Positions 10,231-63,892 of a DNA stretch of 64,000 bases are shown here, one piece after another. The stretch comes from Psammoneis japonica. Taxonomy: Eukaryota. The stretch lies in assembly GCA_008632985.1 (NCBI GenBank), contig QPGO01000255.1, positions 1 to 64,000 on the forward strand, read 5' to 3'. Position numbers and translations under genes: made by a program. Every line of letters begins with the position of its first letter. The stretch's first letter is position 1. The notes under the pieces are model-generated. The model was given only the letters and a program-made list of their open reading frames with translations, was not told the origin of the DNA and did not search any database.

Positions 10231-10319
10231 TGCCTGCAAAAGTTTTTCTCTCTTCTGCACATGAGACAAAGTGCTTGATGATTCACACTTGGGCAAATGT
10301 TGGCTCAAATGTTGACACA

Positions 10320-31785: not shown

Positions 31786-32467
31786 TCTCTTCTAGAGAAG
31801 TCGAAGCACTATAATTTTCTCTCTTAGCATTTACTCTTCCATAAGCTGGTATGTGTGGGCTTGCGTATCTTCAATGCGGTCTTCATCGTGGCCGACAGAT
31901 GATGATGATGTGCTGTTGCTATTGCCGCACCAGCAACAGAAGGGAAAGTGTCCTGAGCAATTACAGCTGCAACCTGACGATGGGATGAACGAGCCAGATG
32001 TCAAGTATTAGAGTCAGTTCAATTAGAGCCAATTTGGAGGTGGCACACCCTCGAGAAGAAGAAGAAAAGCCACCACTATGTCCACGTACGTGCTGAATGC
32101 TTTAACGCCGTTTCGAAGTCTGAGGCTTCTTACCTCCAAAGACCCCCCCAATTCCTTGTCCAATACTCTTGAAGCCAGACACAACGCCGGAACCAATGGT
32201 GAGCGCACCATCCGCGGCGCCAGAAACAACAGACTCTACTCCTTGCCCAACTCCAGCCCCTACGGATGCCACCCCTTCCCCAAGTCCCGAAAGAACCGCT
32301 CTACCGTCACCAGTGGCGACTCCTTTTCCGACACCCTTGGCGATCTGTTGGGCCCCTCCTGTCACTCCGCCGAAGACATGCCCTACACCCTTCCCAGCTC
32401 CTTTGACAACCTTGCCAGCTCCAGCTCCAACTGCAGACACAACAAGTTCAAACGTATGAGGTATTAT

Positions 32468-34664
32468 GGACTATGGAGATTCGGAAAACTTGGTCGCACT
32501 GTCCGTCCGTCACCAGGCATCGGAGGTCAAAATCTGCGGCGATGATGCTCTTTTCGTACCGGTACGAAGAACCGTCATTAAAAGAATAGAAAGAGATTTG
32601 TAAGAGATCACATTCTATTACGTCTACTTTAATATTTAAAGCACTGGTTTAGACATAAAGCTGCACTGAAACCCCCAAGCAATCCACAAGTCAGCGGTCA
32701 TTTCAAGATCCTGCCGCTGGTGGATACCACCACTCATCATGCCACATGCCTTCATGCGTTTCACGGCTTGTTCATTCGCCGACCGATCACTGGCTACAGC
32801 TGCTGAGACAAGAACCGCTTCGCTGGTGAATTTGGGCTCCAACCGCTGCCATTGCTAGCAGCTATACTCAAATACAGGATACAGCCTCCCACTGCCACCA
32901 GTGCTAGTGGGAGCCACATACAGTCTCTAACCGCCGCCAGCGCTAGCAGCTGTGCAGGATACAGCCTCCCACTGCCACCAGCGCCAGCATCATACAGGGA
33001 AACCCACCGCCACCAGATAAAAAGGATAGTAGTGCACAGGCTCCAACCGCCGCCATTGCTAGCAGCTATACAGGATACAGCCTCCCACTGCCACCAGTGC
33101 CAGCATCATACAGGGGTACCAACCGCCACCAGATAAAAAAAGATTGTGGTGCACAGGCTCCAACCGCCGCCAGTGCTAGTGGTTATACAGGATACAGCCT
33201 CCCACTGCCACCAGTGCTGCAGCAGTAGCACACAGGCTCCTACTGCCACCAGTGCTAGCAGCAAAAGGCTCCAACCGCCATAAGGCTCCAACCGCCTCGA
33301 TTGCTACCAGTACACAGGCTCCAACCGCCGCTAGTGCTAGCAAATATACAGGATACAGGCTCACACTGCCACCAGTGCTACAGCAGTAGCACACAGGCTA
33401 CTACTGCCACCAGTTCTAGCAGCAAAAGGCTCCAACTGCCTCAAGTGCCAGTAGTATACATGATCCCACCGCCACCAGTGCTACAGTAGTAGCGATATAT
33501 ACAGGCTCCCACTGCAACCACTGGCCAGTAGCAAAAAAGCTCCAACCACCACCAGTGCCAGCAGCATACAGAAGCATCCACCACCACCACATAATAAGGC
33601 TCCAACCGCCTCGATTGCTACCAGTACACAGGCTCCAACCGCCGCTAGTGCTAGCAAATATACAGGATACAGGCTCACACCGCCACCAGTGCTACAGCAG
33701 CAGCACACAGGCTACTACTGCCACCAATTCTAGCAGCAAAAGGCTCCAACTGCCTCAAGTGCCAGTAGTATACATGATCCCACCGCCACCAGTGCTACAG
33801 TAGTAGCGATATATACAGGCTCCCACTGCAACCACTGGCCAGTAGCAAAAAAGCTCCAACCACCACCAGTGCCAGCAGCATACAGAAGCATCCACCACCA
33901 CCACATAATAAGGCTCCAACCGCCTCGATTGCTACCAGTACACAGGCTCCAACCGCCGCTAGTGCTAGCAAATATACAGGATACAGGCTCACACCGCCAC
34001 CAGTGCTACAGCAGCAGCACACAGGCTACTACTGCCACCAATTCTAGCAGCAAAAGGCTCCAACTGCCTCAAGTGCCAGTAGTATACATGATCCCACCGC
34101 CATCAGTGCTACAGTAGTAGCGATATACAGGCTCCCACTGCCCACTGCAACCACTGGCTAGTGGCAAAAAAGCTCTAACCACCACCAGTGCCAGCATCAT
34201 ACAGGGCTGCCAACCACCACCAGATAAAAAGGACAGTAGTACACAGGCTCCAACCGCCGCCTGTGCAAAAGCAGTAAAAGGCTCCTGCCGCCGCCAGTGC
34301 TACCACATTCAGCCCTGCCATAATAGTCCAGTCCATAAATCATAAATTCATGTTGAAAACAACACCTTCAGAGACGCCACCAATGAGACAGATCTCTTTC
34401 AAACTTTCCAACACACATTGTCACATGTAGAAGCATATACTGTGGTATGGCTACGGGAACGTACTGAAAACGCCGCCGCCGCCGCATCATCATCGTGAAA
34501 GTGCCGTTTGCGTTGGCCTCACGCAAATTTGAATGAGCTGATTGGTGCAACTGCCATTTCAGTATCGCCCCACGTAATATTACGTACGTGGAATCCTACA
34601 CATGTTTGGTAAACGCATGGAAGGACAGGCCGAGTGCGACCATTTTTTCAAATCTCCATAGTCC
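32468..34664. mobile_element. Non-autonomous TIR DNA transposon (2,197 bp), GG...CC termini, AT target-site duplication (ISL2EU/Harbinger-group-like)
   Basis: Left end GGACTATGGAGATTCGGAAAACTTGGTCGCACT. Reverse complement of the right end GGACTATGGAGATTTGAAAAAATGGTCGCACT. Empty site GTATT-AT-TAATCGG at 39986-39999. No transposase motif seen. Confidence 0.85.
32835..34300. repeat. Minisatellite array with a 314-bp higher-order repeat
   Basis: Subunits of about 30-40 bp (AGGCTCCAACCGCC..CAGTGCTAGCAG). Identical ORFs are offset by 314 (33481/33795 and 33555/33869). Confidence 0.9.
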
Positions 34665-36194
34665 ATTAATCGGCAATCACGAAGATCGAGTTGCGTCATA
34701 CGACTTACCGCCTTTAATGTTATTACCGACACCATCTCCAACCCCAGTAACAACACTGTTGACCCCCGCGCCAATTGCTCTAGCTCCCACTCTGTCTGTT
34801 GCATCTTCAACACCTTGTCCCAGAGCCCCTGTCACAGCGCTAAGGCCGTCACCCAACCCTGCTCCTACCTTTTTCAACACATACCCTGCACCAGAACCCG
34901 CAATATTGCCAGTCAAACGCACGTAGTCGCCTTCTTTCCAGTTCTCGTCTCCTTCACGCGATGCGAGATACTTCCAGTCTTGAATGCTCACCGCAGTCAT
35001 CAGCGTGACGAATTTCAGCTAACCGACAAGAAAGAAGTCGCCAAACGTGAGAGACGACATTCATTTTCCCGAACAAATTCACTACGGTATGTTTCTCTTA
35101 CCTTGATTTTTCCAACGTAGTAAGCCTTCAGAATCTCAAAAAGGCGATCGGGAGGCCCCTTGACATTGGTCGCTTCATATCTACCGAAATTCAATTCGGC
35201 TTTGTCGATTTTGAATTTCAATCTTTTGGTAAAATAGTTCATCAGCTTAGCAAACCGCACATCTGTAAGGTCGTCCGGCATGATTAATTTGGTGAGTAAT
35301 CTGCCACCATTACAAATTAGTCAAGTAGAACAATCAATGGAAAGCGCCCTTCGAGATTGGTTGATCAGCGCCGCCCGATATGATAAGGGCACGAGTATTA
35401 CTCGTTTGTGCGTAATAACCTTGACTGAATGGTTCGTGTGAGTGTGCGAGTACGTGTGGATGAGAAAAGAGCGGAGTAGTAACGCCGCCCGATACGATCA
35501 GGGCACGAGTATCACTTGTTTGTTGTTATTGTTTGATTTGTTTGAATATGGGCTAGAATAGCGGCAGCGAGTACCGCGATTGATCTACAAATAAAGAATA
35601 TCTTTGTAAGGTAAAGAAACGACAAAGTTATCTCGTCCAATAGCTGATGACGCTCCACGTATACAGGCTCCATCCTGTCTTTGATTTTCTGCTGCTGCAA
35701 TGTCCAATGTATATGACATAATATCAACCGTGGCGGAAGATCATTGGTGAGTCCAAGTATAGTGAGCTCGGCATAGAGAATAGTGATGACAGTACCGACT
35801 CGGAGCTGGGTACTGACAATGAGTTTGCACCCGACACAGAATACTATGTCATGATAGTGGTCAGGTGCCTTGCTGGTCTTTGTGGATGTAGCATTACGTA
35901 TTAGTATTCCAATTGAATCCAATCGAATCTAGTTCATGTTGTGCATATCCCCGTTCCACGCAAATCCAATCGTATCCAATTGCTCTCGAAGCTTTGCATA
36001 GTCTGGCTCCTGGCTGTCTTTGAGCACTCGGCTCTGGGTTTTCATCCATCCGTGCAATCGCTTGTCCTTCAACATGCAGATGGATCATGTCTTGTTAATT
36101 CGTGAAGCCACAGGAGACGGATGTGGTAGTCGCGGTTCATAATGTGTGACAGGAGGAACTAACCACTGCAGTGGTCAGAAGGGATGTTACTCCC

Positions 36195-36510
36195 TTGAGT
36201 TCCACTACAAGCCAAAACGCTATCGCTACTACTGGCACGCTACTGCTGGTCTGCTGCTACCGGTCCACTACAAGCTATCGCCACTGCTGGTACGCTGCTG
36301 CTGGTCTGCTGCCACCGGTCCACTGCAAGCTATCGCTGTTGCTGGTACGCCACTGCTGGTCTGCTGCTACCGGTCCACTACAAGCTATCGCTACTGCTGG
36401 TACGATACTGCTGGTCTGCTGCTACCGGTCCACTACAAGCCAAAACGTTCTGGTGCGACGCTGTTGCTACTGCTGGTGCGCTACTGGTACACCACTGGTA
36501 CACTACTACC
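36195..36510. repeat. Tandem repeat of ~55-bp units (CTGCTGGTCTGCTGCTACCGGTCCACTACAAGCTATCGC...)
   Basis: Four to five imperfect copies. Confidence 0.85.
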
Positions 36511-36539
36511 GTTGAAATGTTGAACTACTAACTAAACCC

Positions 36540-36635
36540 CTGCAATGATACCCCATGAACCGACAATGACACCCCATGAACCCGACAATGATACCCCATG
36601 AACCCGACAATGATACCCCATGAACCCCAATGAAC
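36540..36635. repeat. 22-23-bp tandem repeat (CGACAATGATACCCCATGAACC), about 4 copies
   Basis: Direct reading of the sequence. Confidence 0.9.
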
Positions 36636-36645
36636 CGACCCCTCC

Positions 36646-37756
36646 TCAACTGAGGCGACGACGCTTCTGCGCTGATTCCAACGCTTCTTTCGCATCAGAG
36701 TAACGACGCTTGAGAGCGCGCATTTCTGCGTCGTCGTCCTCTTGCACCTCATCGATCCTGGTGAGATCCTCCCCTTGATTGTTTGCTGCCAGAAAGCCTT
36801 GGATATGCTGGCTGGCATCCCTCACTGTCTCCTTCGAAGTGAAAGCTAGGTACACCTTGAGGGCATGAACGAGATCTTCCCTGGTGATGCCGTCGATGTT
36901 GAAAACCATCTTTCCGTCGAAGAACTCCCTCATGTACGCGCTGCGATCCCAGCCGAGCCTCTGCAGGTACCGGTGCTTCCCCTTCGCATCTTCGAAACTG
37001 AGAGCGTCACAGTCTTCTACCCGGAGGAGACCAGACGACTTCCTGGCTTGCATGGGGTCGGCATCCTCCAGAGGCTTGGGGTGGACCATCAAAAATTCGT
37101 ACGTGTTGTACTTTGTTGTGGCCTCCTCCAAGTCAGTTACTGCAGCAAAGTGGACTGAACGAGCGCATCAAGGCAGCAGGCAGCAGACGAGACGTTAGTG
37201 CATCAAGAAATTCACGCCATCAAAAATACATTGCTCCCATCATTGCAAACTTACGGGCTTTGGATTCTTCAGCCTCCGCCTTAAACTGCTCAATCTCGGT
37301 GGCCACCTGTTGCCCCTTCATATCCAACAGCTTCTTTTCTTGTTCCTTTTTTGAGACGTGCTCTTCACACTGCTTCACGGCTTCTTTCATGGTTTGTGCC
37401 GTCTCAATCTTGGTACTAATGTCCGGGAGCACCTGCCTCATCTTCAGTTTGCAAGCGGCTGGCACCGCTTTGCTGGGCTTCGACGAGCCATTGACGACAT
37501 TGTGGAAAACAATCTCTTCGACGTCACCTGGGTTGAGCAGTAGGAACTTTTCAACCACCGTGAAATCGCTCCGGCTGAGACGCGTGTCTTCTTTCTTTCT
37601 GGCAAGGGCGAGGGCTTCATCTGTGGAAGGACCCGGCTTGTGCTCACGGCCCATGGATGAAGCAGAGAGCTCCGAAACGTTTGAACCCCCCGAGGTGTTT
37701 TGGCGCAAGGGAGGCGGGGCCAGGGTGCTGTTTGTTTGATTGTTGAAGCTGCTCAT
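36646..37756 (-). CDS. Hypothetical two-exon protein (~330 aa) with coiled-coil segments
   Basis: ATG at 37756 (MSSFNNQ). A GTAAG...CAG intron at 37254-37140 joins ORF 37220..37972 in frame to ORF 36646..37131 (KA-L-TDLEEATT). Basic C-terminus KRRRLS. Confidence 0.7.
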
Positions 37757-38062
37757 GGTGCTCGGCAAATGTGAGAAAGTGAGAAGTGCGGCTCCTCTTT
37801 TTGGAGTGCCCGCAATTTTTTGCAGTCTGTAGAACTTGTACCAAGTTGTACTGTGGACGAATAATTTTGTCTGGATTGGTGCAGTGCAAGAAAGTTGTAG
37901 AACTTGTACCAAAGTGTACACACTGTGGACGAATAATTTTGTGTAGGATTGGTACAGGATATGAAAGTTCAAGTTGAACGAGTGGCAGCGGGGTCATGCA
38001 CATGGCGTGGACAATCCGGCCGTTTTTTCTAATCATTCGTGTCTGAGGATTGAGATTTAAAA

Positions 38063-38365
38063 TACGTCACTCGATGTTTCGGCCACGTCACTCGATGTTT
38101 CGGCCACGTCACTCGATGTTTCGGCCACGTCACTCGATGTTTCGGCCACGTCACTCGATGTTTCGGACACATCACTCGATGTTTCGGACACGTCACTCGA
38201 TGTTTTGGACCTTATGTATTGAGTTCCTCAACGTCACTCGGGTTCGCATCCGTTATGTATTGAGTTCCGGACACATCACTCCATGTTTTGGACTTTATGT
38301 ATTGAGTTCTTCAACGTCACTTGGGTTCGAATACGTTATGTTTTAAGTTCTTCAACGTCACTGAA
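38063..38365. repeat. 21-bp tandem repeat (ACGTCACTCGATGTTTCGGCC), about 7 copies, then degenerating
   Basis: Translates as (RHSMFRP)n in ORF 38050..38346. Confidence 0.95.
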
Positions 38366-38479
38366 GATTTTTGAGACTTGAAGCTGCGAGCTGCGAGGTA
38401 TGAGTTGCGGCAATTTTGGCGAGCTCGTTGTTGCATAACACAAAAGCACGCCACCGTCGGGGATACTACCATACTGTAT

Positions 38480-38822
38480 TAGTCTCTGCAACCTGAGTGA
38501 GATTATCAACATAGCATCTACCCTCCTTGTTTCGCTTTATGGCAAGCTTTGAGTTTGCTTGGGAGTCCAATCTTTCTGAAGATGATCAATTAGCTTTTCG
38601 TTGTAGATCTCCAAGAAACTCGCCTTCATTTTGTACTCGAACTTGTCACTTTCGATGGATATGGCTTGTGACAACTGGATGATACCCCTCTGTGAACCCT
38701 CACCCGCCCCTTGCATTGTTTTGGTTTTTCCGAACCTGTTTGTCCATATGCAAAAAGACATACGTTGTATCCGTCAAGTGCACTCTGCACAAAATCCGAG
38801 ACTTCTTCGTAAACACCTTCTG
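38480..38822 (-). pseudogene. Kinesin-14 (KIFC1/Kar3-like) motor-domain fragment
   Basis: [35 protein letters not shown]...RGII...ASFLEIYNEKLID. Frameshifted and truncated at the duplication boundary. Confidence 0.85.
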
Positions 38823-40597
38823 GAAGTGTCAAGGAAACCCTGGAGTCGATTCGAGAAGGAAACCTTTCTCCCTCGGATCTTCCACCTATACAAGTGATTG
38901 TTGGACCCAAGGATGAAAGCGGGTTGCAGTGGTACTTCTCGCTGAATAATCGGCGTTTGTGGGTACTCAAACGTTGCAGAGAGGAAGGTCTTCTGAAGAA
39001 CAATGTCATTCCTGTTCGCGTTCGTACCCCAAAAAGTGAGAGCGAAAGAAATAGATATACTCTGATTAACTGCGCAGTTGAGGCCAGATTCCTTCGAGAA
39101 ACGGAGCAATCGCGTGATGCACATTCAGACAGGAAGGACAAGTCGTTGCCGAGAGACCCTAGACAGTATGCGGCACCAAACAAGAATGTCATTGAAAAAA
39201 GCTCGCCAGACACGATGCCGTGTGAAAAGGACCAGGACGACGATGAAACGTCAGATTCTCTCAGCGACGACGTCTGCGCATATACGAATCCGTTCAACAT
39301 GTTGCTGTAGTCTCTTCTAGAGAAGTCGAAGCACTATAATTTTCTCTCTTAGCATTTACTCTTCCATAAGCTGGTATGTGTGGGCTTGCGTATCTTCAAT
39401 GCGGTCTTCATCGTGGCCGACAGATGATGATGATGTGCTGTTGCTATTGCCGCACCAGCAACAGAAGGGAAAGTGTCCTGAGCAATTACAGCTGCAACCT
39501 GACGATGGGATGAACGAGCCAGATGTCAAGTATTAGAGTCAGTTCAATTAGAGCCAATTTGGAGGTGGCACACCCTCGAGAAGAAGAAGAAAAGCCACCA
39601 CTATGTCCACGTACGTGCTGAATGCTTTAACGCCGTTTCGAAGTCTGAGGCTTCTTACCTCCAAAGACCCCCCCAATTCCTTGTCCAATACTCTTGAAGC
39701 CAGACACAACGCCGGAACCAATGGTGAGCGCACCATCCGCGGCGCCAGAAACAACAGACTCTACTCCTTGCCCCACTCCAGCCCCTACGGATGCCACCCC
39801 TTCCCCAAGTCCCGAAAGAACCGCTCTACCGTCACCAGTGGCGACTCCTTTTCCGACACCCTTGGCGATCTGTTGGGCCCCTCCTGTCACTCCGCCGAAG
39901 ACATGCCCTACACCCTTCCCATCTCCTTTGACAACCTTGCCAGCTCCAGCTCCAACTGCATACACAACAAGTTCAAACGTATGAGGTATTATTAATCGGC
40001 TAATCACGAAGATCGAGTTGCGTCATACGACTTACCGCCTTTAATGGTATTACCGACACCATCTCCAACCCCAGTAACAACACTGTTGACCCCCGCGCCA
40101 ATTGCTCTAGCTCCCACTCTGTCTGTTGCATCTTCAACACCTTGTCCCAGAGCCCCTGTCACAGCGCTAAGGCCGTCACCCAACCCTGCTCCTACCTTTT
40201 TCAACACATACCCTGCACCAGAACCCGCAATATTGCCAGTCAAACGCACGTAGTCGCCTTCTTTCCAGTTCTCGTCTCCTTCACGCGATGCGAGATACTT
40301 CCAGTCTTGAATGCTCACCGCAGTCATCAGCGTGACGAATTTCAGCTAACCGACAAGAAAGAAGTCGCCAAACGTGAGAGACGACATTCATTTTCCCGAA
40401 CAAATTCACTACGGTATGTTTTCTTACCTTGATTTTTCCAACGTAGTAAGCCTTCAGAATCTCAAAAAGGCGATCGGGAGGCCCCTTGACATTGGTCGCT
40501 TCATATCTACCGAAATTCAATTCGGCTTTGTCGATTTTGAATTTCAATCTTTTGGTAAAATAGTTCATCAGCTTAGCAAACCGCACATCTGTAAGGT
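38823..40597. repeat. Segmental duplication copy B (1,775 bp), including a 5'-truncated copy of the 31147 gene (38823-39310)
   Basis: Near-identical to copy A without the TIR insertion. Confidence 0.95.
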
Positions 40598-51230: not shown

Positions 51231-52154
51231 TCACGCCTTCGGACGATTGCGTCCAAATCTGTAAGCTGAAGCAACGCCAAGTGCTATCCCAGCAGCGAAC
51301 GTTAGTACCAGCTGACGAATCTTTTGTTGGTTCCATGAAGCTTTATCTACAATCTTTCCGTCCTCCCATGACCTTGGATTCGAAAACAATTCCGAAAAAG
51401 ATTTTGATAGTGATCGAAAAAGCCAACTTTTCCCTGCTACCGTAATGGCCGAATCACGACGCTTGACCAACTTTCTGCTTTTCTCGTTTCGCTGTGCTGC
51501 TTTTGATACCTGTTGCTCAATCCATTGCACAGCTGCTTCCGCTGTTGGTTCAAAATGGAGGATATTTTCAGGATCCGTGTACACTAGCTGGTCTTCGCTC
51601 GCTCGTTGCAGCATGAGTCTAAAGTTCTCATAGTAACCATCGGCATTGACACAAACAATTGGGATGTCCGTCAATCCGATGTTGCGCGAACACGCCATCT
51701 CCCAGAGCTCGTCCCACGTGCCAGGACCACCGGGTAGGACCACTAGAGCATCGGCGCCCTCAACCAACAAGCGCTTTCTCTCCTGGAGGTCGTCTCCTCC
51801 GGCCACGAGGCACTCCCGTGTCGGGCCTTCTTGGTTGCTCATTTCGTTTCTAAACACTTTGTGCGCACCACCATCACGAGTACACCAATCACTGCCATCA
51901 ACTACAAACATTTCATGAATTACCCCCACAATATGGCCGTTCCCTTCGGCAGCCCCGTCGTTCATAGCCGCCATGCATCCGAAAGAACCAGCGCCATTGA
52001 CGCACACGTGTCCACGCTTCGCCAGCGTGTATCCCAACAACCGCGCCTCCGACAAATATTTTTCTGGTGTTTTGCTAGAAGAAGAGCCATAGCAGGTCAC
52101 CCTCAGTGACTTTGGAGCACGCTCCGACACAAAGTCGGATTCGACAGACGTCAT
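51231..52154 (-). CDS. LOG family (Lonely Guy / 'lysine decarboxylase-like') nucleotide phosphoribohydrolase with a C-terminal membrane anchor
   Basis: VTCYGSSS, LGYTLAKRG..VNGAGSFGCM, ERKRLL..ADALVVLPGGPGTWDELWE and PIVCVNADGYY. Hydrophobic tail LVLTFAAGIALGVASAY. Confidence 0.9.
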   Translation of the reverse strand: MTSVESDFVSERAPKSLRVTCYGSSSSKTPEKYLSEARLLGYTLAKRGHVCVNGAGSFGCMAAMNDGAAEGNGHIVGVIHEMFVVDGSDWCTRDGGAHKVFRNEMSNQEGPTRECLVAGGDDLQERKRLLVEGADALVVLPGGPGTWDELWEMACSRNIGLTDIPIVCVNADGYYENFRLMLQRASEDQLVYTDPENILHFEPTAEAAVQWIEQQVSKAAQRNEKSRKLVKRRDSAITVAGKSWLFRSLSKSFSELFSNPRSWEDGKIVDKASWNQQKIRQLVLTFAAGIALGVASAYRFGRNRPKA

Positions 52155-52812
52155 GTTGGTAGGGATTATGAGCGGCGAGATGAGTGTTGCGTTGACACAG
52201 CCAGCATAGAAAGGCCCAGCACAATGGCACTTCAGCATTCTGGATTCTGAATTCCTCCTTTGATCTCCACTTACTCTGTCTATGTAGTTAGTAAAGGACA
52301 ATATGACATTTTTGTATTTAAGAGGCGCAAATAAAAGATAATTATCCAGAAGAAGGCAATCGTGTCAATTCACTTTTAAATGCTTACACATACATCAGTG
52401 TTTGACGAATTCGACATTACCAGGAAAATTACTTATGCCCATCTCTACTTATGGGTCGAAACTCCATGGGCATAAATAGACCGCTGCACGGGGACGTGCC
52501 GTCACATTTTGGACTTGTTCATTCCCTGCAACGGATGGGGCCCAGGCTTGTGAAACATTGTATTTTGTGTTAAATGCACAATTCTTTGGAACCATGCAAT
52601 GCACACAAAAATGATCTTGTGTGAGAAAAACAACTGTGAACATTTGAATGACAATAAAAATGCGTGCAAAATGCAATGTTAAAATGTGCATTTCCCAAAT
52701 GTGTGTCCCGCGCGCTCCGACGCGCGGCGAACTTCTTCAAAAATCACCTTCAACACATGGCAACACAGGTGGAAACGGCGATTGTTTTTAAAAATCCATC
52801 CACTGCACATTG

Positions 52813-53537
52813 ATCTTGCACACGTGTGCGCGGTCATTGGACTGTGCAGGTGTGTGTGCGTGTGTGAGGTGCAAGTGGGGTGTGCGCAGAATTGCTGCTG
52901 AGTGGCTGGCATGCCGTGGATTTTCCGCCGGTGCACAATCTGCGTGGTCTGCATGGAACATAAATTTGTGTTGGTCTCTGAGGCCATTGCATGTCATTGA
53001 TTTTGCCAAGGCCTCTGATGCGTGTGTGTGCCAACTCAAAAGTCTGACAGAACACCCCGAAAGAACTCTGGAATCTGGACAAAAAAATTTCTGTTTGGCG
53101 GTGCGAACAGGGTCGCCCCGAAGCGCTTCTCAAAACATTTCCAGATTCAATGCAGCAAAACATCTGCCATCACCAAAACAGAGTTGTTGTCGGACAAACA
53201 GATCCCGTGGTCTTCGTGCACAAACAACACGACAACGCACAACAACGCCATGGTGAGAAACGCGAACGCCGTCCCCTCATCTGCAAGCTGGGAATGCGAG
53301 ATGCTGTTGAAGTGGTTGGACAACATGCGTGCGCTGCATTCATGGGTCAAGTTGGGTTTCTTCTCGCTGCTTGTTGTTGCATCATTTTACAACGTTTTGG
53401 CCCACGCCATGTTCTTTGCTTTGTTGCTTCTGCTCGCGCGCCACCAACAGCTCTTCCTGCAGGGTGTGGCTGGTTGCACGGCTGCATTGAACCCAAACGT
53501 GCGCGACCAACTGGCCCTGCCCCAGCTGGCTCATGCA
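52813..53537 (+). repeat. Long inverted repeat, copy 1 (TpA-depleted)
   Basis: Reverse complement of 57647-58372, colinear over ~725 bp. Confidence 0.95.
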
Positions 53538-53539
53538 GT

Positions 53540-56500
53540 CATTTTCATCATCCGCGGAAAAATCGCGTGACACCCCCCAAAAATGCAGTGCCCAAAGCAC
53601 AACTTTTGACCACACGTTCGCGCAGAACTCGCCAAGTCGAAAAACCACGAAAACACGTGGGTTTCTACGCAAATCTGGTGCAAAACGAATGGCAAAGCTC
53701 TGCCTCTTCCTCTTCACACACCGGGAAAAACACCTGCACATTTGATCACAAGGTCGTTGCTGCATTCTTCTTTTCGTCATTCAACTGAACTGTTGTTGCC
53801 ATGACATCACAGACCTCCTCATCATCTGCCGGCACTGAGATTGAGCAGCCGGAAACAGTTGAATTTGCAACGGCTGCAGCTCAATGTCCTCAAGGGGAGG
53901 CAATGCCGAGAAAGAAGAATCGCTGGGGTTCAACTGTCAGTGTGGTGCTGCCGTCACCAGATGAGCACGATGTGATGCCAGTTCATCTTGGGGTGGAAGA
54001 GTGGACTCTCATGAAACAGAAACCGCCAAAAGCCAGATCAGGAAAGAAAAAACAGTTCAGTTAACACGACTGCATTGTGGACCGGCCGACCAGCAGCAAC
54101 GGTCACACCAGCTCCTCTCGTTGACCTCGGAGGCTCAATTTGTCCTCATCACATTTTCTTCTCAAAAGCGAAATTGAGAGATTGCTGGAGCTTGAAGAAT
54201 TTGAGTTTTGTGACAGAGAGAAGAAGAAGCAAATTTGCCATCGGGAAAAGGCACTCGATAAATTCGACACACGAGAAACGAAATCCCAACGAGGATCCAT
54301 TGATGCCCCTCCCTCCTGAGCCGGCACGAGATTGGAGCATTGGCGCCGGCATGCCGCTTGATGGATTCAAGGTTGTTTTGAAGCAGAGGCCCCCAGAACC
54401 AGCTCATCCAGCGCCCCTGCTTTCATCAGATGATGAGTCGTCTGTGGATGATGAAGACATGCTGGGTTGTCACAAATCTCTGGAGGATTGGAAGTCAGCA
54501 CCATGGGAAATCGATTGTGCAGTGTTTGACTTGCTCGTGGTTGCAAAGAGCATTGCGAAAGACAATGCCAGTGGTGGGGGGAGCCCTTCTTCAAATGAAA
54601 GGCAGCGCACATCCTCTGCGAGCCATGATGACCCTTTGCCAGATTGGCGCAAGAAACTGAGCGACGTTCGCATTGCTCTCTTGCAACCTGTGGTGAAGAG
54701 CACAAACAATGACTGTCTTCTCTTGGATGGCAAGCCTGCTGTTGTAACCAACTTCTCTGTGTCAATTGGGGAAGACCCTGAGAGCTTCAAATTGGGTCAC
54801 CTGAGACAGAGCGTTCTGAGCCAGGCTGCTTCGCAAGCGAAGCATCGCGGTGGACTTGGAATCAACTCCGCTCTGTTCTGCCAGACCTCAAAGGTTGACA
54901 AGCATGTGACAAGGCTCAATGGCACGGACCAAATGTGGAACTTTCTGGAGAACAAGTGCAGCAGTAAAAAGAGCAACTGCAAGTGCCAATTTCTGTGCAC
55001 ACGTCGTTTGCCATTTGCGATGGTGTCATCTCTCACCACAACATTTTCTCATTGCTGCATTTTGTGATCTGTGGTTTTGAAGATGTGTCTGTGTTCCTTG
55101 CCCTTGGCTCAAAGCACCGTGATGACGTTGACTGCGATGAGGAACAGTCGCAAATTGCCGATCCGTCGAGACATGTGAGGACTCTCACCGGAGTGGCAAC
55201 AACCGAGCTCTGTCTTCACTGGCAAAGACGGCATTCGACCCTGGTGCCAGCAACCGAAGACGTGGAAGGGCAGCTGAGAGCTTGCATTCTGTGAGCAGGG
55301 AGTGGGTTTTCAAACATCTCTGTGCGGATGAGAGCTCACCATGTCATCATGGATTCGCCAATGGAGTGCTTGCTGTGATGACAAGTTGTTTCAATGGCAA
55401 GAGGTTCCCACCGGAAAATCAACTCCCTTGGGAAAAATGGCCGTCAGGATCCAACATCTGTTGGCAATTGACCCATGTTGCTGCTTTTGCTCTGTGATTG
55501 TGGCGCGCACCTGAGCAGTCCATTCAACATGAGGCATCTGCCATTGGACCCACAACTGCAAGAGAGATTCCTTCTGATGGGAGAAATGTGTTCGTCTCAG
55601 ATGAGGATCACGTCCAAGGCAACGGCACCCAAGGTGGCCTCTGCATTGCAAGATGCCTTTTTCAACTCTGATGCATTTGCTTCAAATCAACACAGCGAGG
55701 TGTGTGCACAGCAACTGGAGGAGGATCACGCAAGTGTTTCCATCCCAGATGACCCCACTCATGAAACGGCATCAGCCATGGTGCCTGTGGCACAAGAGAC
55801 TTGTTCCAATGAAGAAACTTCTGCACCAAAACAATGCATTGGCTGGCATGGTTGAAGAATGCATGCAAGCACGAGAGCCCCTCATTGCAGGTGCCAGTGC
55901 TGCTGCTGTTCTTGTCATTGTTCCAAGGCAGTCCACTCAGATGGGAAGTGGTGCACTCAACAATGACGCCATTCAGAAGAGGGCATGTCAACGGTTTTTG
56001 CCAAAGACTTGGATCCGACAAAGCGACTGAGATTCTCGTGTCCAAACGGAGGTTCGGGAGTTTGCAGTCCCCAAAAATGGTCTTGCAGGTCGGTGCAGAA
56101 CCGGGACGCATGGGCTTTGTCGTCGTCCTTGAGTGGCTTCAAGTGATTTGCAAAGAGGAAAAAGGGGTTGGGCTTGACTGCCATGTTGGCATTCCATTTC
56201 GCACAAATTCACCCTGTCATCAACAACGTTGTTCTCTTCTGTCAAACTCGAAACCCCGTTGATGCTGACGCGTTCCAGCCCTGGGTGGGACTCCGTGTGA
56301 CATTTGGCCCGCAGAATTCTGCGTGCGAGCTCCGCAGTGCGAGAATTTAATTGATGGATGCGTTTGTCTTCAACATCAAATGAACGGCCAAGTTTGTGGT
56401 GCAATTGTGCCTCTCACCACTCGACGTTTTTGCAAATGCACCTGCCCTGCGCGATTCTTAAGACATCATAGAATCGCGCTGCAACAAAAAATGTCAAAAG

Positions 56501-57480
56501 TTTTTGGACGGATCGCTCAACAAGTGCACCGCAAAATGACACAAAATGTCAAAAAATCACGTAGAATTTTACGTGCGCGACACACGACGAGATTCAAAAA
56601 AAGGTCCCACCTGGACCTGGAACGCGTCTGCTGCCACACGGCTTCTTCAACTGTCCAACCACAATTTCGACTCTCTCATCATTGATGTTGAATTTTGCAT
56701 TGCAGCACTCTGCCCACAGGCCTGCTGGCATCCATTGACTCTGAACGCTAGAATCCAAAAACAGCCGATGCATGTGTTTTGATGCGAGCGATTTTCTGAC
56801 ATCAGACATGATGGGTTTTTGCACTTCGGCCCTCAGGGAGCTTCGCAAGTGGGTTGGTGAGGTGGGTGCAGGTCGCAGTGCAAAAAGCCATGGATTTTCA
56901 AGAAGCTGTGAGCATCATCGTCGAGAGACCGGGCACGTGACAATTCTTGTGCTTTTTGTTTTCCCGCCAACAAAATGAACTTAAACTTGGTGACGTGTTG
57001 TGCCACTTGCGTGGAAATCTGCTCCAAATTTCAAAAAATCAATTCCAGCCATGCGCATGATCACACCTGATGTCACAGAGCCTAAATTTAGCCTCTTCGA
57101 AAAAATTGGTGGTTGTTGGCCCCGTGCATGATGCAATTTTAGGCCACACGATTTTTTCAGAGGAACAGTGTTCTCGCGATGACACTGTTCCTCGCTCTGG
57201 AAATGTCACACCCCCACATCACACCCCTGGGGTCGACACACGAAACGACCCAGAAATGGCTTTTTTGATGCAACCACAGCGCTTGTGGCTGTGTCCCATC
57301 CACAACAAACCTGTGACATGATCACATGCGAGAGCTTGCTGTGTTTGGGGCGCTCTGCGTGCCGTTCTTGGCTTGTCACGATGCACAGTAATTTTGCTGA
57401 ACCTTCTCTCAATCAATTCGCGGCAGAAACTCATGCAATGAAGTTGCTTGCATGTGAGTCATGCATGAGTTTGATTTTAT
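53540..57480. other. TpA-depleted degenerate coding-like sequence of unrecognised origin (probably repeat-derived)
   Basis: Long ORF remnants that are Tyr-free and Cys/His-rich (e.g. 54075..55067). No family motif recognised. Confidence 0.4.
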
Positions 57481-57646
57481 GATCGATTTGTCTCCTTTAC
57501 ATGGCTTGTTGTAGACTTATGGTTGCGTTCTCGTCGTCATGGTGGCGTCGTTCTCGTCGTGTGGTTTTATTCTGTTTTAATCTAACTTCATCGATGGAGT
57601 TGGTTCAATGCCCTGGTTAAATGATCAACCTTCATCAGTGATAAAA

Positions 57647-58372
57647 TGCATGAGTTAGCCGGGGTAGGGCTAGTTGGTCGCGCACGTTTGGGTTCGATGC
57701 AGCCGTGCAACTAGCCATACCCTGCTGGAAGAGCTGTTGGTGGCGCGCGAGCAGAAGCAACAAAGCAAAGAACACGGCGTGGGTCAAAACGTTGTAAAAT
57801 GACGCAACAACAAGCAGCGAGAAGAAACCCAACTTGACCCATGAATACAGCGCATACATATTGTCCAACCACTTCAATAGTATCTCGTATTCCCAGCTTG
57901 TAGATGAGGGGACGGCGTTCGCGTTTCTCGCCATGGTGTTGTTGTGCGTTATCGTGTTGTTTGCGCGCGAAGACCACGGGATCTATTTATCCGACAATAA
58001 CTCTGTTTTGGTAATAGTAGATGTTTTACTGTATTCAATCTGAAAATATTTTGAGAAGCGCTTCGGGGCGACCCTGTTCGCACCGTTAAATAGAAATTTT
58101 TTTTATCCAGATTCCAGAGTTCTTTCGGGGTGTTCTGTCAGACTTTTGAATTGGTTTATACATATATTAGAGGCCTAGGCAAAATCAATGATATGTAATA
58201 GCCTCAGAGACCAACATAAATTTATGTTCCATGTAGACCACGTAGATTGTGTACCGGCGGAAAATCCACGGCATGTCAATCACTCAGCAGTAATTCTACG
58301 TATATCCTACTTACACCTCACACACGTACACACACCTACACAGTCTAATAACCGCGCACACGTGCGCGAGAT
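57647..58372 (-). repeat. Long inverted repeat, copy 2 (TpA-rich)
   Basis: ORF 57635..57934 aligns with the C-terminus of ORF 53022..53570, with Y/C, Y/H, Y/R and I/M differences. Confidence 0.95.
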
Positions 58373-58547
58373 AAAATCAGTATGTTAAGATATTCGTGTA
58401 TTAGTAAAACTTGGGTATGCATAAAAGTATGATCTGAGTATGGAAAGCACTCGTGGGTATGACTCCGCTACGTCAGCAAAAAGGCTTCGTGACGTCAGGT
58501 ATGATCATAGGTGCCGTATGATCCAGTTTGGACCAGTGTTAACTAAT

Positions 58548-58849
58548 GATTGCTAGGATCGATTGCAATCAGCCTCACTTTGATTGCAATCGCAATTGCA
58601 AACTCGATTGCAATGACCTGATTGTCGGGAAAGAGCCGAGGTCGCAATCACAATCGACTGTTGCAATCGATTGCAATCGAAATTCGAGCTCTTTCATTGG
58701 CTGGAATCAGTGAAATGGCTCGATTTCTTCGCACGGAGTGCGCTCTTGCGCAGAGAGCAATCGACTGATTGCAATCTGATTGCTGCAGAAAACTTTGCAA
58801 TTGGTTGACCCTGGTTTGGACAGGGTCTAGCCAGGGCCCCAAGGGTTAA
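58548..58849. repeat. Cluster of GATTGCAATC palindromes ending in GGG|TTAA (possible transposon terminus)
   Basis: Full palindromes at ~58561, 58582, 58669 and 58767, plus several partial copies. GGGTTAA at 58843-58849. Confidence 0.6.
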
Positions 58850-59319
58850 AATTTGCGCTGTGACTTGATTGTGTGCACAGCATCACACGCCACTCAAAAC
58901 AAACGTGCTTCCGACATTTTTTGAAAATCTGGGGATATCTCCAGCCAGCTGCTGGCTGGAAAACGTCTGCTTGTCAGTGCGTTTACGGGGTTTCACCCGC
59001 ACAATTTACGTGCGTCGAGTCCGTCCAGCGTTCACCAAATCTGGCCACAACCTCAAATGCATTGATTGACAGACTCTGTCAGCGCAAATCCTGCACAAGA
59101 TTCTTCGACCAGCAGCTGGCTGGAGTCATCTGGAGACGTCCCCAAACTCGGATTTTTCTGAGAACAAGTTACGCTGGTGCGGCACGGCACGTCCGTGCCG
59201 AGATCAACAGCGCAGATAGATGCAGACATGGTGCATGAGCAATGACAGCCAACAGACCTTTCAACAGGACAGAAGGCTTGGTGCACCAGGAGACTTGAGC
59301 TTTTGTGGGAGACGCAACA

Positions 59320-62300
59320 ATGTCGCAAGACGACGGCAAGTGGGAGAATGAGGATTCCAGCAGCTCCGAAGGAAGTGGCCATGCAGAAAGTGGCAGCACT
59401 CCGGCTCCACGCAAGGCATTGCGCAGCAGTGCGAAACGAAAGTTTTTCGGTGGCACAACGACACGGCAGTGGCCATCTGCAGCAGTGGTGCAAGAGGTCG
59501 CAAACACAAGAACCGTGACAGGACTGATGGCAGTGCCATGGACTCAGGGAGTGGCAGTGAGAGCATCTCTGGCTTGGCCACAGTTGCAACAGCATCAAGC
59601 CTTTTCAACAAAACCTTTGCCGGTGGTGTCCGACGTGTGACACAGGAGGAAGTGGAGCAAGGCTTGTCCAAGGAACGCCAAGACGAAATCATTGCAAGTC
59701 TCCAGTTGAATCATTTGCCTTTTTGGAATGAACAGTTTCAAAAGGCTATGGATAAACACAAAATCAAGACTGTGGCAGAATTGCTGAATTGGAACTTGCC
59801 CAACGGTGTGCTCCTCGCCTTAGAACCACGCGTACGAACCTGCGTCATGAATCTGCTCGGTTGGAAGGAAAACCCTATAACCACGGCGCGCTTTCTACAG
59901 TTTTGTCAGCGACGAATGCCAGCGTCCAACGACCTGTTGAACAAACAGAGGCTTTCGGAAGGAAAACAGAAGCCGATTCGGCAGGATGGTGATCATGATT
60001 CGGCGTCTGGAACGACGAGCAACGCCACTGAAACCGATGATTCGTTTTCAGGCGCCACCTCAAAGAAACGAAAAAGAGGGTCTCAGGAAAGTGCCACCGA
60101 GACTGCTCCCATGGATTATGATACGGATGATTTGGATGGAGGACGTTTGATGGACAGCATTCCGCACCTGTCAAAGAAAATGTTTGATCCACAGACGGGA
60201 TGCCCGATTCGTCACTTTAGCGTGTTGGATCAAGAAGGTGCGTTAAAGTCTTCGTTCTTTGTCAGCCTAACCGTGTAAGGAAGAGAGCAGATTCTCACGT
60301 ATGCATGCCTTTTGTACTCCTCTCGCACTTGTCAGAAAACATTTTTGATTTCAGGCTGAATGTCAACACATCAACGATTCCTGGAATTGGTCGCGGTGCC
60401 TTCTTGACCTACTTGGGCTGCCGAGTCCTCAAAAAGGAGTGCAGAGAGCGTTCCAATGAGAAAATGAAAGATCGGCATGCCTGCATTCCCGACACTATGC
60501 AGCCCCTCGAGGCAGTCTCCGCTGATGGACATGGGATATCCGTCGAGCTGACTGGTAAAAACCTTCACGGAAACAAGAATTTGCTGCACTGGCCAGTCAC
60601 CACGTTTCCCCTTGCCGCTACGAGGCCATCACGTGATAAGGACTACACGCAAGTTAGAGTGAAACTGACTGGTGAAAAGCTTCACTATGACAGCGACGAC
60701 GAAGAAGAGTACATGACTCATCTTGACTTGATCAACCCTTTTGGATTTCTGAAACTACATGTGGAAGACGATTACGTTCCTTCCAATAGACCTTGCTCCT
60801 CTGATAAATGCGGTATGATTGACTTGGGACGATATGGGCCATGGTTGAAAAGTGATCGAAAAACCAAGACACAGTTTGATATCAAAGCTTTTGTTTTCAG
60901 CCACGAGCCGTCTGATTGGAACTTCGGCGTAGGTGAAAAGCTGCATGGAGAAGAACAGATTATCGACGTTACAAGCGATGCAACGGGCGAGCCACATGCG
61001 TATGCTCAAACGTTTGGTGATATGTTGATGTACGTCAACGAGGTGGGCTATAACAAAGAGCTCCAGCAAAATGTTCAAGCGCTCGAGAAGGACGGAAGAA
61101 CGGTTCATTACTACTTGGATATAGCAACGTCCTTGCAAAAGAACCAAACGGTCGAACTCTTTGTGGACTATTATGATTCATACGAAGCATCTCGGGAACG
61201 CAAGGGGTATGGAAAGAGGAATTTAAACGAAGGTCTTCGCGGCGACGACCACGAAGCGACTCGCTTGAAACGAAATATTCTCGAGCGGCACGATCTTCAG
61301 CATTATTTTGAAAGGTTGACCGTTATGCAATTGTATGAGTTGGTGGAGTTTTTAGAAAAGATACTGCAGCCGGTTGCGAGTGTTACGAACGACTTTGTTC
61401 AACACTTGCAGACTAGAATCCCGAGCCCTCGCTCTATTGTCGCGGTTGAAACGGTCAAGCAGCCGTCTGTGTTACAGTGGTGTGCCCGGCGCCGTCTGCA
61501 TTGGATAAGCATGGAATTGGGAGAACGTGCGTGGAGACTTGAAAAACTGTCAAGGAAGCCAGGTGCAGGTGCTTCCGAATCTTTTCCATATCAAGGTATT
61601 TTCGATGACATGAAGAGACGACTGAAAGAAATGGAGTGGGATCATGTTGACGTTGTTTTGAAGAAACTGAACTGCGACGAAGACGCAGTATACGCGGGCC
61701 TAACCTTTGAGATGTCTGAAGAATGCCTCTTTGAATTATCGAAGAAAGGCTTGTTGGATGCATTTGACGAATCGAGGTGGTGCCCGATTGCGGTGAAACT
61801 CACAAAGAGTCTCTGTGAGCAAGTATACATCCCCAGCACCTCGTCGCAAGAGAGGCGGTTTACAAAGGAAAGACTCCTGGGAACCCTTTTGAGTATTGCT
61901 GGTACAGCTGCCGATTGTGTGCGGCGTGCCTGCCGTTCGAAAAGTCCAGAACTTCTCAGCCAGCTACAGTTTGAGTCCGGCGTTCAGCGTGATCGATACG
62001 TCAATGCGGCGTATGTGCGACAATGTGAGGCAGTGATGGGGCCGGCTGCATTATCTTGTGTGAATTTTCCTCAGTTTCCCATGGGCGTGTTAGCCGCGTT
62101 GGCTCAAGCGTACGATTCCTTGGGGAGGCCGATCGACCGGGGTGTTGATGCCGAATCAACCTCACAAAACGTTCATGTGTCTACTGATGGTGTCTTCATG
62201 GTTGCGCAGAAGAACAACACCACGGCTGCTTCTGGAGAACCGAATCCAAGCCGTGTTCACTTGACTCCTCGACCAATCCCTCGAAAGCTGAAAGATGTTG

Positions 62301-63892
62301 TGAATGGTCTTGCCTCTCCCGACGAAGAATGGTATGTTCTTTGGCAAGTGGTGTTCGTCGCACACAAATTCGCATCCAAGGTTTTTGAACGCGAATTAGG
62401 GTTGGAATCAGTGTATTCTCTAGAGAAGCTATGCCGGGCTACGACTGTAGACATCAATGACGCCGAGCAGGTTGTTGAGACGCAGATGAAGCCTTTTGAC
62501 TATCCAGAATTGCCGCAAATAGTTGTGAGGCGGAGTAAACCCTCGCAAGCAACCAGCAAGAAGGCGTCACAGAAGCCCAACTCGAGCACTGGAGAGGCTA
62601 CGAAAGTAGACACCAAAGGTGCCAAGGAGGTTGTGGAGACGTCGATGAAGCCTTTTGGATATCCAGAATTGCCGCAAATTGTGAGGCGGGGTAAATCCAC
62701 GAAAGCAACCAGCAAGAAGGCGTCACAGAAGCCCGACTCGAGCACTGGAGAGGCTACGAAAGTAGACACCAAAGACGCCAAGGTGGTTGAGGAGATGTCG
62801 ATGAAGCCTTTTGGCCATCCAGAATTGCCGCAAATTGTGAGGCGGAGTAAACCCCCGCAAGCAACCAACAAGAAGGCGCCACAGAAGCCCAACCCGAGCA
62901 CTGGAGAGGCTACAAAAGAAGAGACCAAAGGTGCCAAGGGGGTTTTGGAGACGTCGATGAATCCTTTTGACTATCCAGAATTGCCGCAAATTGTGAGGTG
63001 GAGTAAACCCCCACAAGCAACCAGCAAGAAGGCGTCGCAGAAGCCCAACCCGAGCACTGGAGAGGCTACGAAAGTAGACACCAAAGACGCCAAGGTGGTT
63101 GTGGAGACGTCGATGAAGCCTTTTGGCTATCCAGAATTGCCGCAAATTGTGAGGCGGAGTAAACCCCCGCAAGCAACCAGCAAGAAGGCGTCACAGAAGC
63201 CCGACTCGAGCACTGGAGAGGCTACGAAAGTAGACACCAAAGACGCCAAGGTGGTTGTGGAGACGTCGATGCTGCCTTTTGACTGTTCAGAATCGCCACA
63301 AATTGTGAGGCGGGGTAAATCCTCGAAAGCAAGCAATGAGGAGAAGTCACGGACGCCCAACTCGAGCCCTGGAAAGGCTACAAATAATGTAGACATCAAA
63401 GACGCAAAGGAGGTTGTGGAGACGTCGACGAAGCCTTATCACCATCTAGAATTGCCTCAAATTGTGAGGCGGCGTAAATCCTCGAAGGCAAGCATTAAGA
63501 AGAAGTCGCAGACACCCAATTCAAGCCCTGGAAAGCCTATGCCGAAAGTTGTATTGTTTCATGGAATTGTTTGGAAAGCTCTAGAAAGTGTTGGTTGGAC
63601 GTTGGATCGAGGCAATCGACCGACGGACTTTTGTTACTTTCCACCCGGCGTTGCTCGCGGCGAAGGATTTAGAAAACGTGAGGATTTCTTTGACAGTGTC
63701 AAGCAGGTCATGAACTTTATCGAGACGGATCCTCGATGGAAGGACAAAGAAGAGGTCGTTGTAGGCTTGAAGATGTTCAGGGCATGCTCTAAGCTGCAGG
63801 ATGAGCTCAGGTTCAAGTCGCTTCTCCCCAAAGGTCAAATGACGGTTGAGTGGTTAGTTAGTCAGGTAGAGAACAAAAAGCAATCAGAGTAA
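59320..63892 (+). CDS. Large hypothetical protein with a SET-like domain, internal 52-aa repeats and a C-terminal WxxL..GW..PPG..DFF domain
   Basis: An intron at 60238-60335 joins ORFs 59469..60278 and 60305..63892 in frame. SET-like STIPGIGRGAF, YVNE and VELFVDY. Probable frameshift near 59470. Confidence 0.7.
62445..63540 (+). repeat. Intragenic tandem repeat, 156-bp (52-aa) unit, 7 copies
   Basis: The PF(D/G)YPELPQIVRR motif recurs at 62501, 62660, 62816, 62972, 63128, ~63284 and ~63440. Confidence 0.95.

Follow-up and report, generated by a model that had tools for sequence, protein, structure and literature searches.

Hypermutation confined to the dinucleotide TpA has been described in the chlorarachniophyte alga Bigelowiella natans, in which 15 mutation-accumulation lines yielded 302 nuclear mutations, 231 of them within integrated giant-virus and virophage regions (Mettrop et al., bioRxiv 10.64898/2026.01.13.699255). 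According to the main text of that preprint, 230 of the 231 regional mutations were A>G or T>C changes, all at TpA and on either strand, and they arose at a rate of about 6e-7 per site per generation, about 1000-fold over background, in some lines only. The same text describes 124 clusters poor in TpA and rich in CpA and TpG, reports an excess of reverse transcriptase (RT) and DDE domains among TpA-poor coding sequences, and proposes an ADAT2-like DNA deaminase; it makes no mention of diatoms, stramenopiles or trinucleotide context (10.64898/2026.01.13.699255). Here, we analyzed 64,000 nucleotides of the diatom Psammoneis japonica (assembly GCA_008632985.1, contig QPGO01000255.1, positions 1 to 64,000 of the forward strand), referred to below as the window, in which two inverted copies of a repeat unit of about 725 bp differ mainly by TA in one copy and TG or CA in the other. 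We estimate a probability of about 0.8 for the reading in which one of these copies was altered by a regional hypermutation of silenced repeat DNA that converts TpA to TpG or CpA on both strands. In our analysis, this diatom footprint would be best filed with the TpA-erasing hypermutation so far reported once, in the unrelated chlorarachniophyte; no report of TpA-specific hypermutation or of TpA-free transposon domains in diatoms was found in the open-access papers that were searched.

The repeat unit was delimited by a repeat finder, by blastn and by alignment. Copy 1, the mutated copy, lies at 52810 to 53538 on the forward strand, and copy 2, the TA-bearing copy, lies at 57647 to 58375 on the reverse strand. 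By blastn, the inverted pair measured 729 bp with 89.7% identity (E = 0), and no third copy of the unit was found in the 64-kb window. The repeat finder returned the pair as two adjoining pieces (52810-53090/58095-58375 and 53081-53537/57647-58103). Global alignment over the 729 bp revealed 68 transitions, 6 transversions and 2 gap columns. At 59 of the transitions copy 1 had C or G where copy 2 had T or A, and the polarity was opposite at the remaining 9; a local alignment of 742 columns gave 60 versus 9 (binomial P = 2e-10). CA or TG in copy 1 opposite TA in copy 2 accounted for 44 of the 59 majority-direction transitions, whereas all 9 in the opposite direction were CG in copy 2 and TG or CA in copy 1. 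A preliminary description of this sequence had reported an inverted pair of about 725 bp at 52813 to 58372, differing mainly by TA versus TG/CA and by transitions nearly all in one direction, with some differences of other kinds; our coordinates agree to within 3 bp, the counts bear out the pattern, and the other differences comprised four GA>GG, four AG>GG and two AA>GG changes. The sequence strings quoted there were found in the local alignment, and the peptides differ as stated, with SWECEMLL..NMRALHSW in copy 1 and SWEYEILL..NMYALYSW in copy 2.

When the alignment was read from copy 2, 48 of its 50 TpA sites differed in copy 1 (30 TG, 14 CA, 2 CG and 2 other), as did 9 of 45 CpG sites, while dinucleotides that do not overlap TpA changed at frequencies of 0 to 11%. 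A>G changes depended on the 5' neighbor, occurring at 48 of 101 adenines after T compared with 5 of 75 after G, 5 of 116 after A and 1 of 103 after C (11 of 294 for A, C and G combined). Divergence outside TpA and CpG was about 2% (15/729), against 96% of TpA changed. Copy 1 retained two TpA in 729 bp, at 52961 (ATAA) and 53388 (TTAC), both in TAA or TTA contexts. The TA/AT index was 0.06 in copy 1 and 0.98 in copy 2, for which the (CA+TG)/(AC+GT) index was 1.02. The TG and CA outcomes were interleaved along copy 1 (runs test P = 0.54), and 13 of the 15 TpA sites with a 3' C became TG.

The pair is one edge of a process affecting 36% of the window. Two-state segmentation of TpA density, with expectations taken from base composition, delimited six depleted segments covering 22,960 of the 64,000 bp and holding 70 TpA versus 1,463 expected (observed/expected ratio [o/e] of 0.048; Poisson P ~1e-285). 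The remaining 41,040 bp had a TpA o/e of 0.62. Segments of intermediate depletion were absent, and boundaries viewed in 200-bp bins were sharp. Across the six segments the TpA o/e was 0.03 to 0.10, the CpA+TpG o/e 1.52 to 1.81 and the CpG o/e 0.21 to 0.77 (0.42 overall versus 0.97 elsewhere), and CA and TG were about equally frequent in each of them. The largest segment, at 3636 to 10878, contained 17 TpA versus 477 expected (o/e 0.04; CpG o/e 0.21), and others lay at 11084 to 14377 (12 versus 204), 22310 to 25588 (6 versus 215) and 27650 to 30804 (9 versus 200). Copy 1 falls in the segment at 52681 to 57477 (19 versus 297; TpA o/e 0.06, CpG 0.71, CpA+TpG 1.58), which also spans a gene remnant, a unit resembling a miniature inverted-repeat transposable element (MITE) and a portion of another repeat. 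Immediately after copy 1 come 3.9 kb that are unpaired in the window and equally TA-free. Copy 2 sits in a TA-bearing island at 57478 to 58554 (1,077 bp), consisting of the copy and about 170 to 180 bp on each side, with a TpA o/e of 0.91, CpG of 1.17 and CpA+TpG of 1.16. To the right of this island lies the sixth depleted segment (58555 to 59746; 7 TpA versus 70 expected).

As judged from sequence comparison, protein remnants and paralogous contigs show the TA-free state to be the derived one. The remnants bear on this because they lack tyrosine and carry cysteine or histidine at columns where their homologues have tyrosine. A degraded Ty1/copia-type RT/RNase H frame at 4703 to 5743 on the forward strand, 39 to 48% identical to three proteins, two of them with PF07727, has no tyrosine in 347 residues (9 to 14 in the homologues) and 27 cysteines (7 to 8 in the homologues). 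At the seven columns at which all three homologues have tyrosine, this frame has C, W, T, L, C, I and A, and the homologues' STMEAEY reads STMEAEC. Similarly, a 350-codon frame at 54015 to 55064 on the forward strand, the gene remnant of an unnamed family (four homologues with E <= 0.001, the best at 7.5e-18; 31% identity over 250 amino acids by BLASTP), contains no tyrosine in 350 residues. The single column with tyrosine in all three of its aligned homologues holds histidine, and three columns with tyrosine in two of the three hold cysteine, K and L. TAY->TGY and TAY->CAY are the outcomes expected from TpA loss.

Three public sequencing runs from one sample and one study, here called X1 to X3, were used in the form of contigs, which account for 53% of the words sampled from the stretch. 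For run X1, 3,779 contigs were placed on 52300 to 58900 at 80% likeness, at which joints may come from repeats; runs X2 and X3 do not span the whole stretch, and from them we use the covered parts. Forty of 776 contig variant sites were examined, including one (53400) inside copy 1, at which three contigs have the A of copy 2 versus the G of copy 1. At four positions immediately within the depleted edge (57435, 57450, 57454 and 57456), three contigs share TA where the window has TG. In addition, a 530-bp contig differs from copy 2 by 7 letters (98.7% alike), whereas copy 1 is about 13% different over the same stretch. TpA, CpG and CpA+TpG values are ordinary for copy 2 and its flanks and extreme for copy 1. 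A process that removes TpA is needed in any case, because 23 kb of unrelated sequence is TA-free and copy 1 lies inside one such domain; change in the direction of repeat-induced point mutation (RIP), by contrast, would require a coincidence, because the mutated copy would have landed on ordinary dinucleotide values. We consider it highly probable that loss of TpA in copy 1 is the direction of change. The preliminary description had held that only one copy was mutated, from TA to TG/CA, and this view stands: copy 1 lies in a 4.8-kb TA-free segment, copy 2 is ordinary, tyrosine codons have been lost, and contigs carry TA. Its proposed comparison with third copies and a family consensus was carried out in part: the sites visible in contigs (53400 and 57435 to 57456) side with TA, against a consensus like copy 1.

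The unit of about 725 bp is clearly multicopy. In run X1, the unique left flank matched a contig of depth 52 with zero differences, and contig depths summed to 1,200 to 2,000 over copy 1 and to 5,300 to 8,300 over copy 2, sums that are not copy numbers. Contigs joining 57648 to 58371 and 57647 to 58374 represent forms without copy 2, and another contig skips 57515 to 58459. Other contigs stop at 58372 to 58375 and have at least three unrelated continuations, and copy 2 is flanked on its two sides by ATAAAAT/TAAAAT. Because some contigs lack copy 2, unit ends carry varied flanks and copy 2 has its own flanking sequence, the two arms are independent insertions of a discrete unit, a conclusion to be taken with the caution that contig joints at relaxed likeness call for. 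On the same evidence, together with an end-to-start junction in which one contig links 53526 back to 52813 with 6 extra letters, we rejected the pair as terminal inverted repeats of a single transposon; the preliminary description had posed this choice between long terminal repeats and reinsertion, and the contig joints favor separate insertions. The end-to-start contig implies tandem or circular copies of the unit. Copy 2 is itself nested in another small repeat, and the contigs skipping 57515 to 58459 or 57648 to 58371 suggest nested later insertions.

As to the class of the unit, terminal inverted repeats of its own were absent, and a palindrome, CGCGCACACGTGCGCG, lies a few bases from one end (in the 58350 to 58371 region). 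Together with the end-to-start junction, these features may point to the rolling-circle type, although this is only a guess. A Pfam search of 20 frames of at least 100 codons between 52,682 and 57,982 gave no match to a transposase family, and no protein-level paralogues were matched by the unit's 115-codon frame. An exact 24-mer common to both copies had 0 matches in metagenome contigs and 0 in viral contigs. Rfam and tRNA scans of 52000 to 60000 returned nothing, and an origin as a short interspersed element is not supported. A bacterial promoter and terminator scan of the island gave chance-level results, which have no bearing on a eukaryote.

The footprint also indicates how the process operates. 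It acts on both strands, as the interleaved TG and CA outcomes in copy 1 and the near equality of CA and TG in each segment demonstrate, and these marks speak against a scenario in which a single-stranded intermediate or RNA was edited ahead of integration. Compared with other decay, the process is fast, and it behaves like a switch, TpA loss being equally complete at a CpG o/e of 0.21 and of 0.77. It is regional, since one segment crosses several unrelated units and its edge at about 57477 cuts through a repeat, falling inside a unit represented by a paralogous contig that runs through 57205 to 57514. The TpA that survive in the depleted segments are concentrated in TAA or TTA contexts (53 of 70 versus 542 of 1512 in normal DNA; P = 6e-11). 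Relative survival rose in the order ATAC, GTAC, ATAT, ATAG, ATAA, CTAC, CTAG, GTAA, CTAA and TTAA, with counts of 0/265 for ATAC, 0/112 for GTAC, 1/125 for ATAT and 17/58 for TTAA. We modeled each TpA as two independent targets, with multiplicative risk set by the 3' neighbor of the A; when fitted on the four palindromic classes, this two-strand model predicted the other six reasonably well. From these frequencies we infer a 3' preference of T-A-C/T > T-A-G > T-A-A.

As far as the main text of the preprint describes it, the B. natans system shares several features with this locus. In both, TpA becomes TpG or CpA on both strands in sharply delimited foreign or selfish DNA, the long-term footprint is low TpA with high CpA+TpG (here with an RT remnant in TpA-poor DNA), and activity is not present everywhere or always. 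The numbers given for B. natans (211 events, 6,169 TpA and 3,132 generations) correspond to about 1e-5 events per TpA per generation, at which a targeted block would be cleared within a few hundred thousand generations, and this fits the two-state pattern seen here. The differences are as follows: B. natans belongs to Rhizaria, whereas P. japonica is a diatom and thus a stramenopile; de novo events were measured there, whereas a fossil footprint is seen here; depletion here is saturated (o/e 0.03 to 0.10), whereas the region of nucleocytoplasmic large DNA virus origin in B. natans has a Rho of 0.45; the targets are transposon and repeat nests here and giant-virus and virophage inserts there; and CpG depletion and a visible 3' hierarchy (C,T > G > A) accompany the TpA loss here.

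Other systems resemble the locus less closely. Ascomycete RIP likewise produces dinucleotide-specific transitions in place, ruined repeats, sharp compositional domains and unrecognizable transposon proteins. However, RIP changes C to T at CpA and so raises TpA, whereas A->G change at TpA here erases TpA and raises GC content, and RIP normally mutates both duplicates, whereas one linked copy is untouched here. RIP also depends on an enzyme of the RID/DNMT4 type and on a sexual stage. The preliminary description had also set the pair apart from RIP, and we agree, as all directional change is on one side and the affected DNA has a TpA o/e of 0.05 and a CpA+TpG o/e of 1.5 to 1.8. APOBEC3 and ADAR in animals likewise perform context-specific, deaminase-type hypermutation against mobile elements, but they act on one strand, in single-stranded cDNA or RNA before integration, whereas both strands are marked here across nested elements. 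CpG decay of methylated diatom transposons is matched by the low CpG (o/e 0.21 to 0.77) of the same segments. Such decay accounts for all 9 opposite-direction differences in the pair, but it cannot remove TpA, and the TpA loss is far more complete.

Taken together, these features would be explained if nested repeat blocks, made up of a copia-type retrotransposon, low-copy gene remnants and short non-autonomous units, were hypermutated at the DNA level on both strands. The change would be A->G after T on either strand, turning TpA into TpG or CpA until nearly no TpA remains, while a slower CpG->TpG/CpA decay, typical of methylated DNA, would run alongside. Copy 1, inside such a block, would have lost 48 of about 50 TpA. 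Copy 2, a separate insertion of the same multicopy unit, would have kept the TpA of the family because it came in after the last episode or escaped targeting. That this nested insertion still bears TA points to activity in episodes or to recent arrival, and we infer that activity is episodic. Targeting would presumably proceed via silent chromatin, because CpG decay accompanies TpA loss. The most likely chemistry would be conversion of adenine to hypoxanthine in DNA, read as G, by a TadA/ADAT2-like enzyme that requires a 5' T; this adenine-deaminase mechanism, suggested by the mutation spectrum, is put forward tentatively, with chances close to even. In tRNA, the adenine deaminated by TadA and ADAT2 is A34, which always follows the universal U33; the substrate context of bacterial TadA is U-A-C, and early base editors derived from TadA favored Y-A-C, where Y is a pyrimidine. 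The U33-A34-C35 tRNA context of these enzymes would presumably match the T-A-C-type hierarchy seen here.

A number of points weigh against this reading. When read from copy 1, the pair fits CpA->TpA change in copy 2 equally well, with changes at 45 of 159 CpA, 7 of 78 CpC, 5 of 78 CpG and 2 of 69 CpT, and the preliminary description was right that the pair alone cannot exclude this. Polarization of the 74 substitutions by third copies rests on partial data, namely, the 40 of 776 variant sites with one in copy 1, and the contigs were laid at a likeness at which joints can arise from repeats. The 530-bp contig that resembles copy 2 does not extend beyond the unit and may represent an allele of this locus. 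In the tyrosine comparison, the alignments are 28 to 36% identical, and most tyrosine columns align with residues other than histidine or cysteine (five of seven in the copia frame, and K and L at two of the columns supported by two of three homologues in the other). About 11 A>G changes fall outside TpA, and the TAA/TTA sites that remain may have arisen by new mutation instead of being refractory. Survival of a TA-bearing insertion in a targeted block is accounted for by assumption only, and the support as a whole is a fossil footprint in sequence, with no deaminase, inosine or de novo event observed. We also considered adjacent double differences of CA<->TG between paralogues as proof of ancestral TA, but discarded this argument because an ancestral CpG gives the same result.

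The opposite direction of change, in which the unit began TA-free and C->T change at CpA subsequently affected copy 2 and the sequence flanking it, is a RIP-like explanation to which the context order in the pair lends itself. The two indices of copy 2 (0.98 and 1.02) lie in the range used to call RIP, the TpA o/e of the island (0.91) exceeds that of normal DNA (0.62), its GC content is lower (0.44), and the TA-rich state reaches about 170 to 180 bp past the repeat, as leakage of RIP could produce. The enzyme might be DNMT4, which is described as widespread in diatoms, as related to and grouping with fungal RID, and as being of unknown function (PMC9998398). Nevertheless, a separate, unexplained process would still be needed for the 23 kb of unrelated TA-free sequence, including the tyrosine-less copia RT, and mutation would have spared one member of the linked pair. 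Furthermore, the island is ordinary rather than depleted in CpA+TpG (1.16) and CpG (1.17), three paralogous contigs carry four TA where the window has TG, three have the copy 2 state at 53400, and a contig 98.7% like copy 2 exists; we regard a RIP-like origin as quite unlikely. An explanation that keeps the direction of change but dispenses with a dedicated deaminase is unlikely as well. It would invoke either a repair-linked bias in methylated heterochromatin, namely, polymerase-eta-like patch repair at WA (W being A or T) set off by T:G mismatches from deamination of 5-methylcytosine, or a thymine modification of the 5-hydroxymethyluracil type at TpA that mispairs with G. Polymerase eta prefers WA, and dinoflagellate 5-hydroxymethyluracil prefers TpA. 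Loss of TpA and CpG in the same segments (CpG o/e 0.42 versus 0.97), the 9 CpG->TpG/CpA changes in copy 1 and the few A>G changes outside TpA are consistent with such a bias. However, TpA loss is saturated (o/e 0.03 to 0.10) whether the CpG o/e is 0.21 or 0.77, and is thus faster than, and not proportional to, CpG decay; in addition, nearly all changes are transitions (6 transversions among 74), A after A is barely affected (5/116), unlike in a WA spectrum, and the two-state pattern favors a switch-like process.

Adenosine-to-inosine hyperediting of RNA by an ADAR- or ADAT-like enzyme, fixed by reverse transcription and integration so that copies were mutated before insertion, could draw on the copia-type retroelement in one depleted segment and on the known preference of ADAR for U 5' of the edited A (10.64898/2026.01.13.699255, as stated in its main text). 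It is very improbable, because a single copy has changes on both strands (30 TG and 14 CA, without runs), CA and TG are balanced in all segments, and the frame at 54015 to 55064 has both histidine and cysteine at tyrosine columns. Moreover, one depleted segment spans several unrelated nested units, and the depletion edge at about 57477 lies inside the unit of the paralogous contig at 57205 to 57514. Least credible of all is an artifact in which base-calling or assembly errors at modified bases gave false TG and CA. In some long-read assemblies, base modifications are a source of systematic miscalls of the A>G and C>T types, and only 53% of the words sampled here were present in the runs. However, over the 224 letters of TA-free sequence at 55763 to 55986, a run X1 contig of depth 89 differs at 2 positions, CA and TG also abound in the paralogous contigs of the TA-free interior, and the two copies, 4 kb apart within one assembly, differ at specific sites. 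TpA-directed hypermutation of copy 1 remains our preferred explanation.

Further features were noted in and near the depleted segments. A MITE-like unit of about 366 bp with terminal inverted repeats lies at 56263 to 56628 (inverted arms at 56250-56291/56604-56645), inside the segment that holds copy 1, and has 5 TpA. Its summed contig depth in run X1 was 60,000 to 200,000, far above the rest of the stretch although not a copy number, and contigs skipping 56262 to 56629 exist; the unit may be a later insertion or may have been partially mutated. A second candidate pair at 21120-21632/25603-26040 was rejected, as its copies were 63% identical with many indels and displayed no directional TA pattern. 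Pfam searches of 16 long open reading frames (ORFs) and 100 stop-to-stop frames of the depleted segments detected no transposon domain at E <= 0.01; the copia RT frame escaped Pfam and was recovered through its homologues only. Beside that remnant, in the largest depleted segment, the one weak match of these searches, to UvrD-helicase at 6602 to 6940 on the forward strand (E = 0.002, below the curated cutoff), may be another degraded mobile-element gene. The same segment contains a single N, reflecting scaffolding or an uncertain base, at 6216, and at 4703 to 6065 two open frames that overlap are each longer than 300 codons, because TA-free DNA has TGA stops only.

The genes of the window are eukaryotic, including VPS13, a kinesin, a LOG-family protein and others, and have long uninterrupted frames. 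Among the best 120 matches of the LOG-family protein, the named ones are almost all from diatoms, at up to 66% identity. Two duplications, 31298-32467 = 38823-39992 and 34665-35271 = 39991-40597, share 99.5 to 99.7% identity about 5 to 7.5 kb apart, and the first copies of the duplicated stretches enclose a degenerate tandem-repeat block at 32835 to 34312 (TpA o/e up to 1.58). The duplication at 31298 to 40597, which overlaps a kinesin-like frame, either arose very recently as a segmental duplication accompanied by an insertion or reflects duplication in the assembly. A 269-codon frame at 59469 to 60278 on the forward strand begins in the depleted segment at 58555 to 59746 and enters normal DNA just upstream of an ORF at 60305 to 63892. 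This ORF (1,195 codons, no Pfam match) contains about seven tandem repeats of about 156 bp (52 residues) at 62437 to 63549, which are 79 to 87% identical and share the motif ...KPFGYPELPQIVRRSKP....

If the hypermutation reading is right, the locus has practical consequences. Mutated transposons evade profile searches, as the copia RT evaded Pfam here, and TA-free DNA, lacking TAA and TAG stops, contains long spurious open frames that are a trap for gene callers and repeat annotators. Pairs of mutated and unmutated copies 4 kb apart provide natural before-and-after material for studying specificity, and the TA-bearing island is a locus at which new events could be caught. More broadly, and with odds that we place somewhat short of even, diatoms may possess an adenine-directed counterpart of RIP. 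In this proposal, a T-A-Y-specific, TadA/ADAT2-like DNA deaminase would be guided to silenced, CpG-methylated transposon blocks, where in episodes it would erase every TpA, and hence tyrosine, TAA and TAG codons, in what is an instant of evolutionary time; since the chlorarachniophyte bears the same signature, such enzymes could represent an ancient genome defense across the stramenopile, alveolate and rhizarian lineages and a source of natural double-stranded-DNA adenine editors. If the hypermutation reading is right, the locus would point to a natural enzyme able to deaminate chromosomal adenine within a tight T-A context, which would be of direct interest for base editing. Dinucleotide-specific hypermutation as a genome defense would then not be confined to fungi, and an adenine-directed form of it would be present in two or more distantly related algal lineages, one of them the ecologically dominant diatoms.

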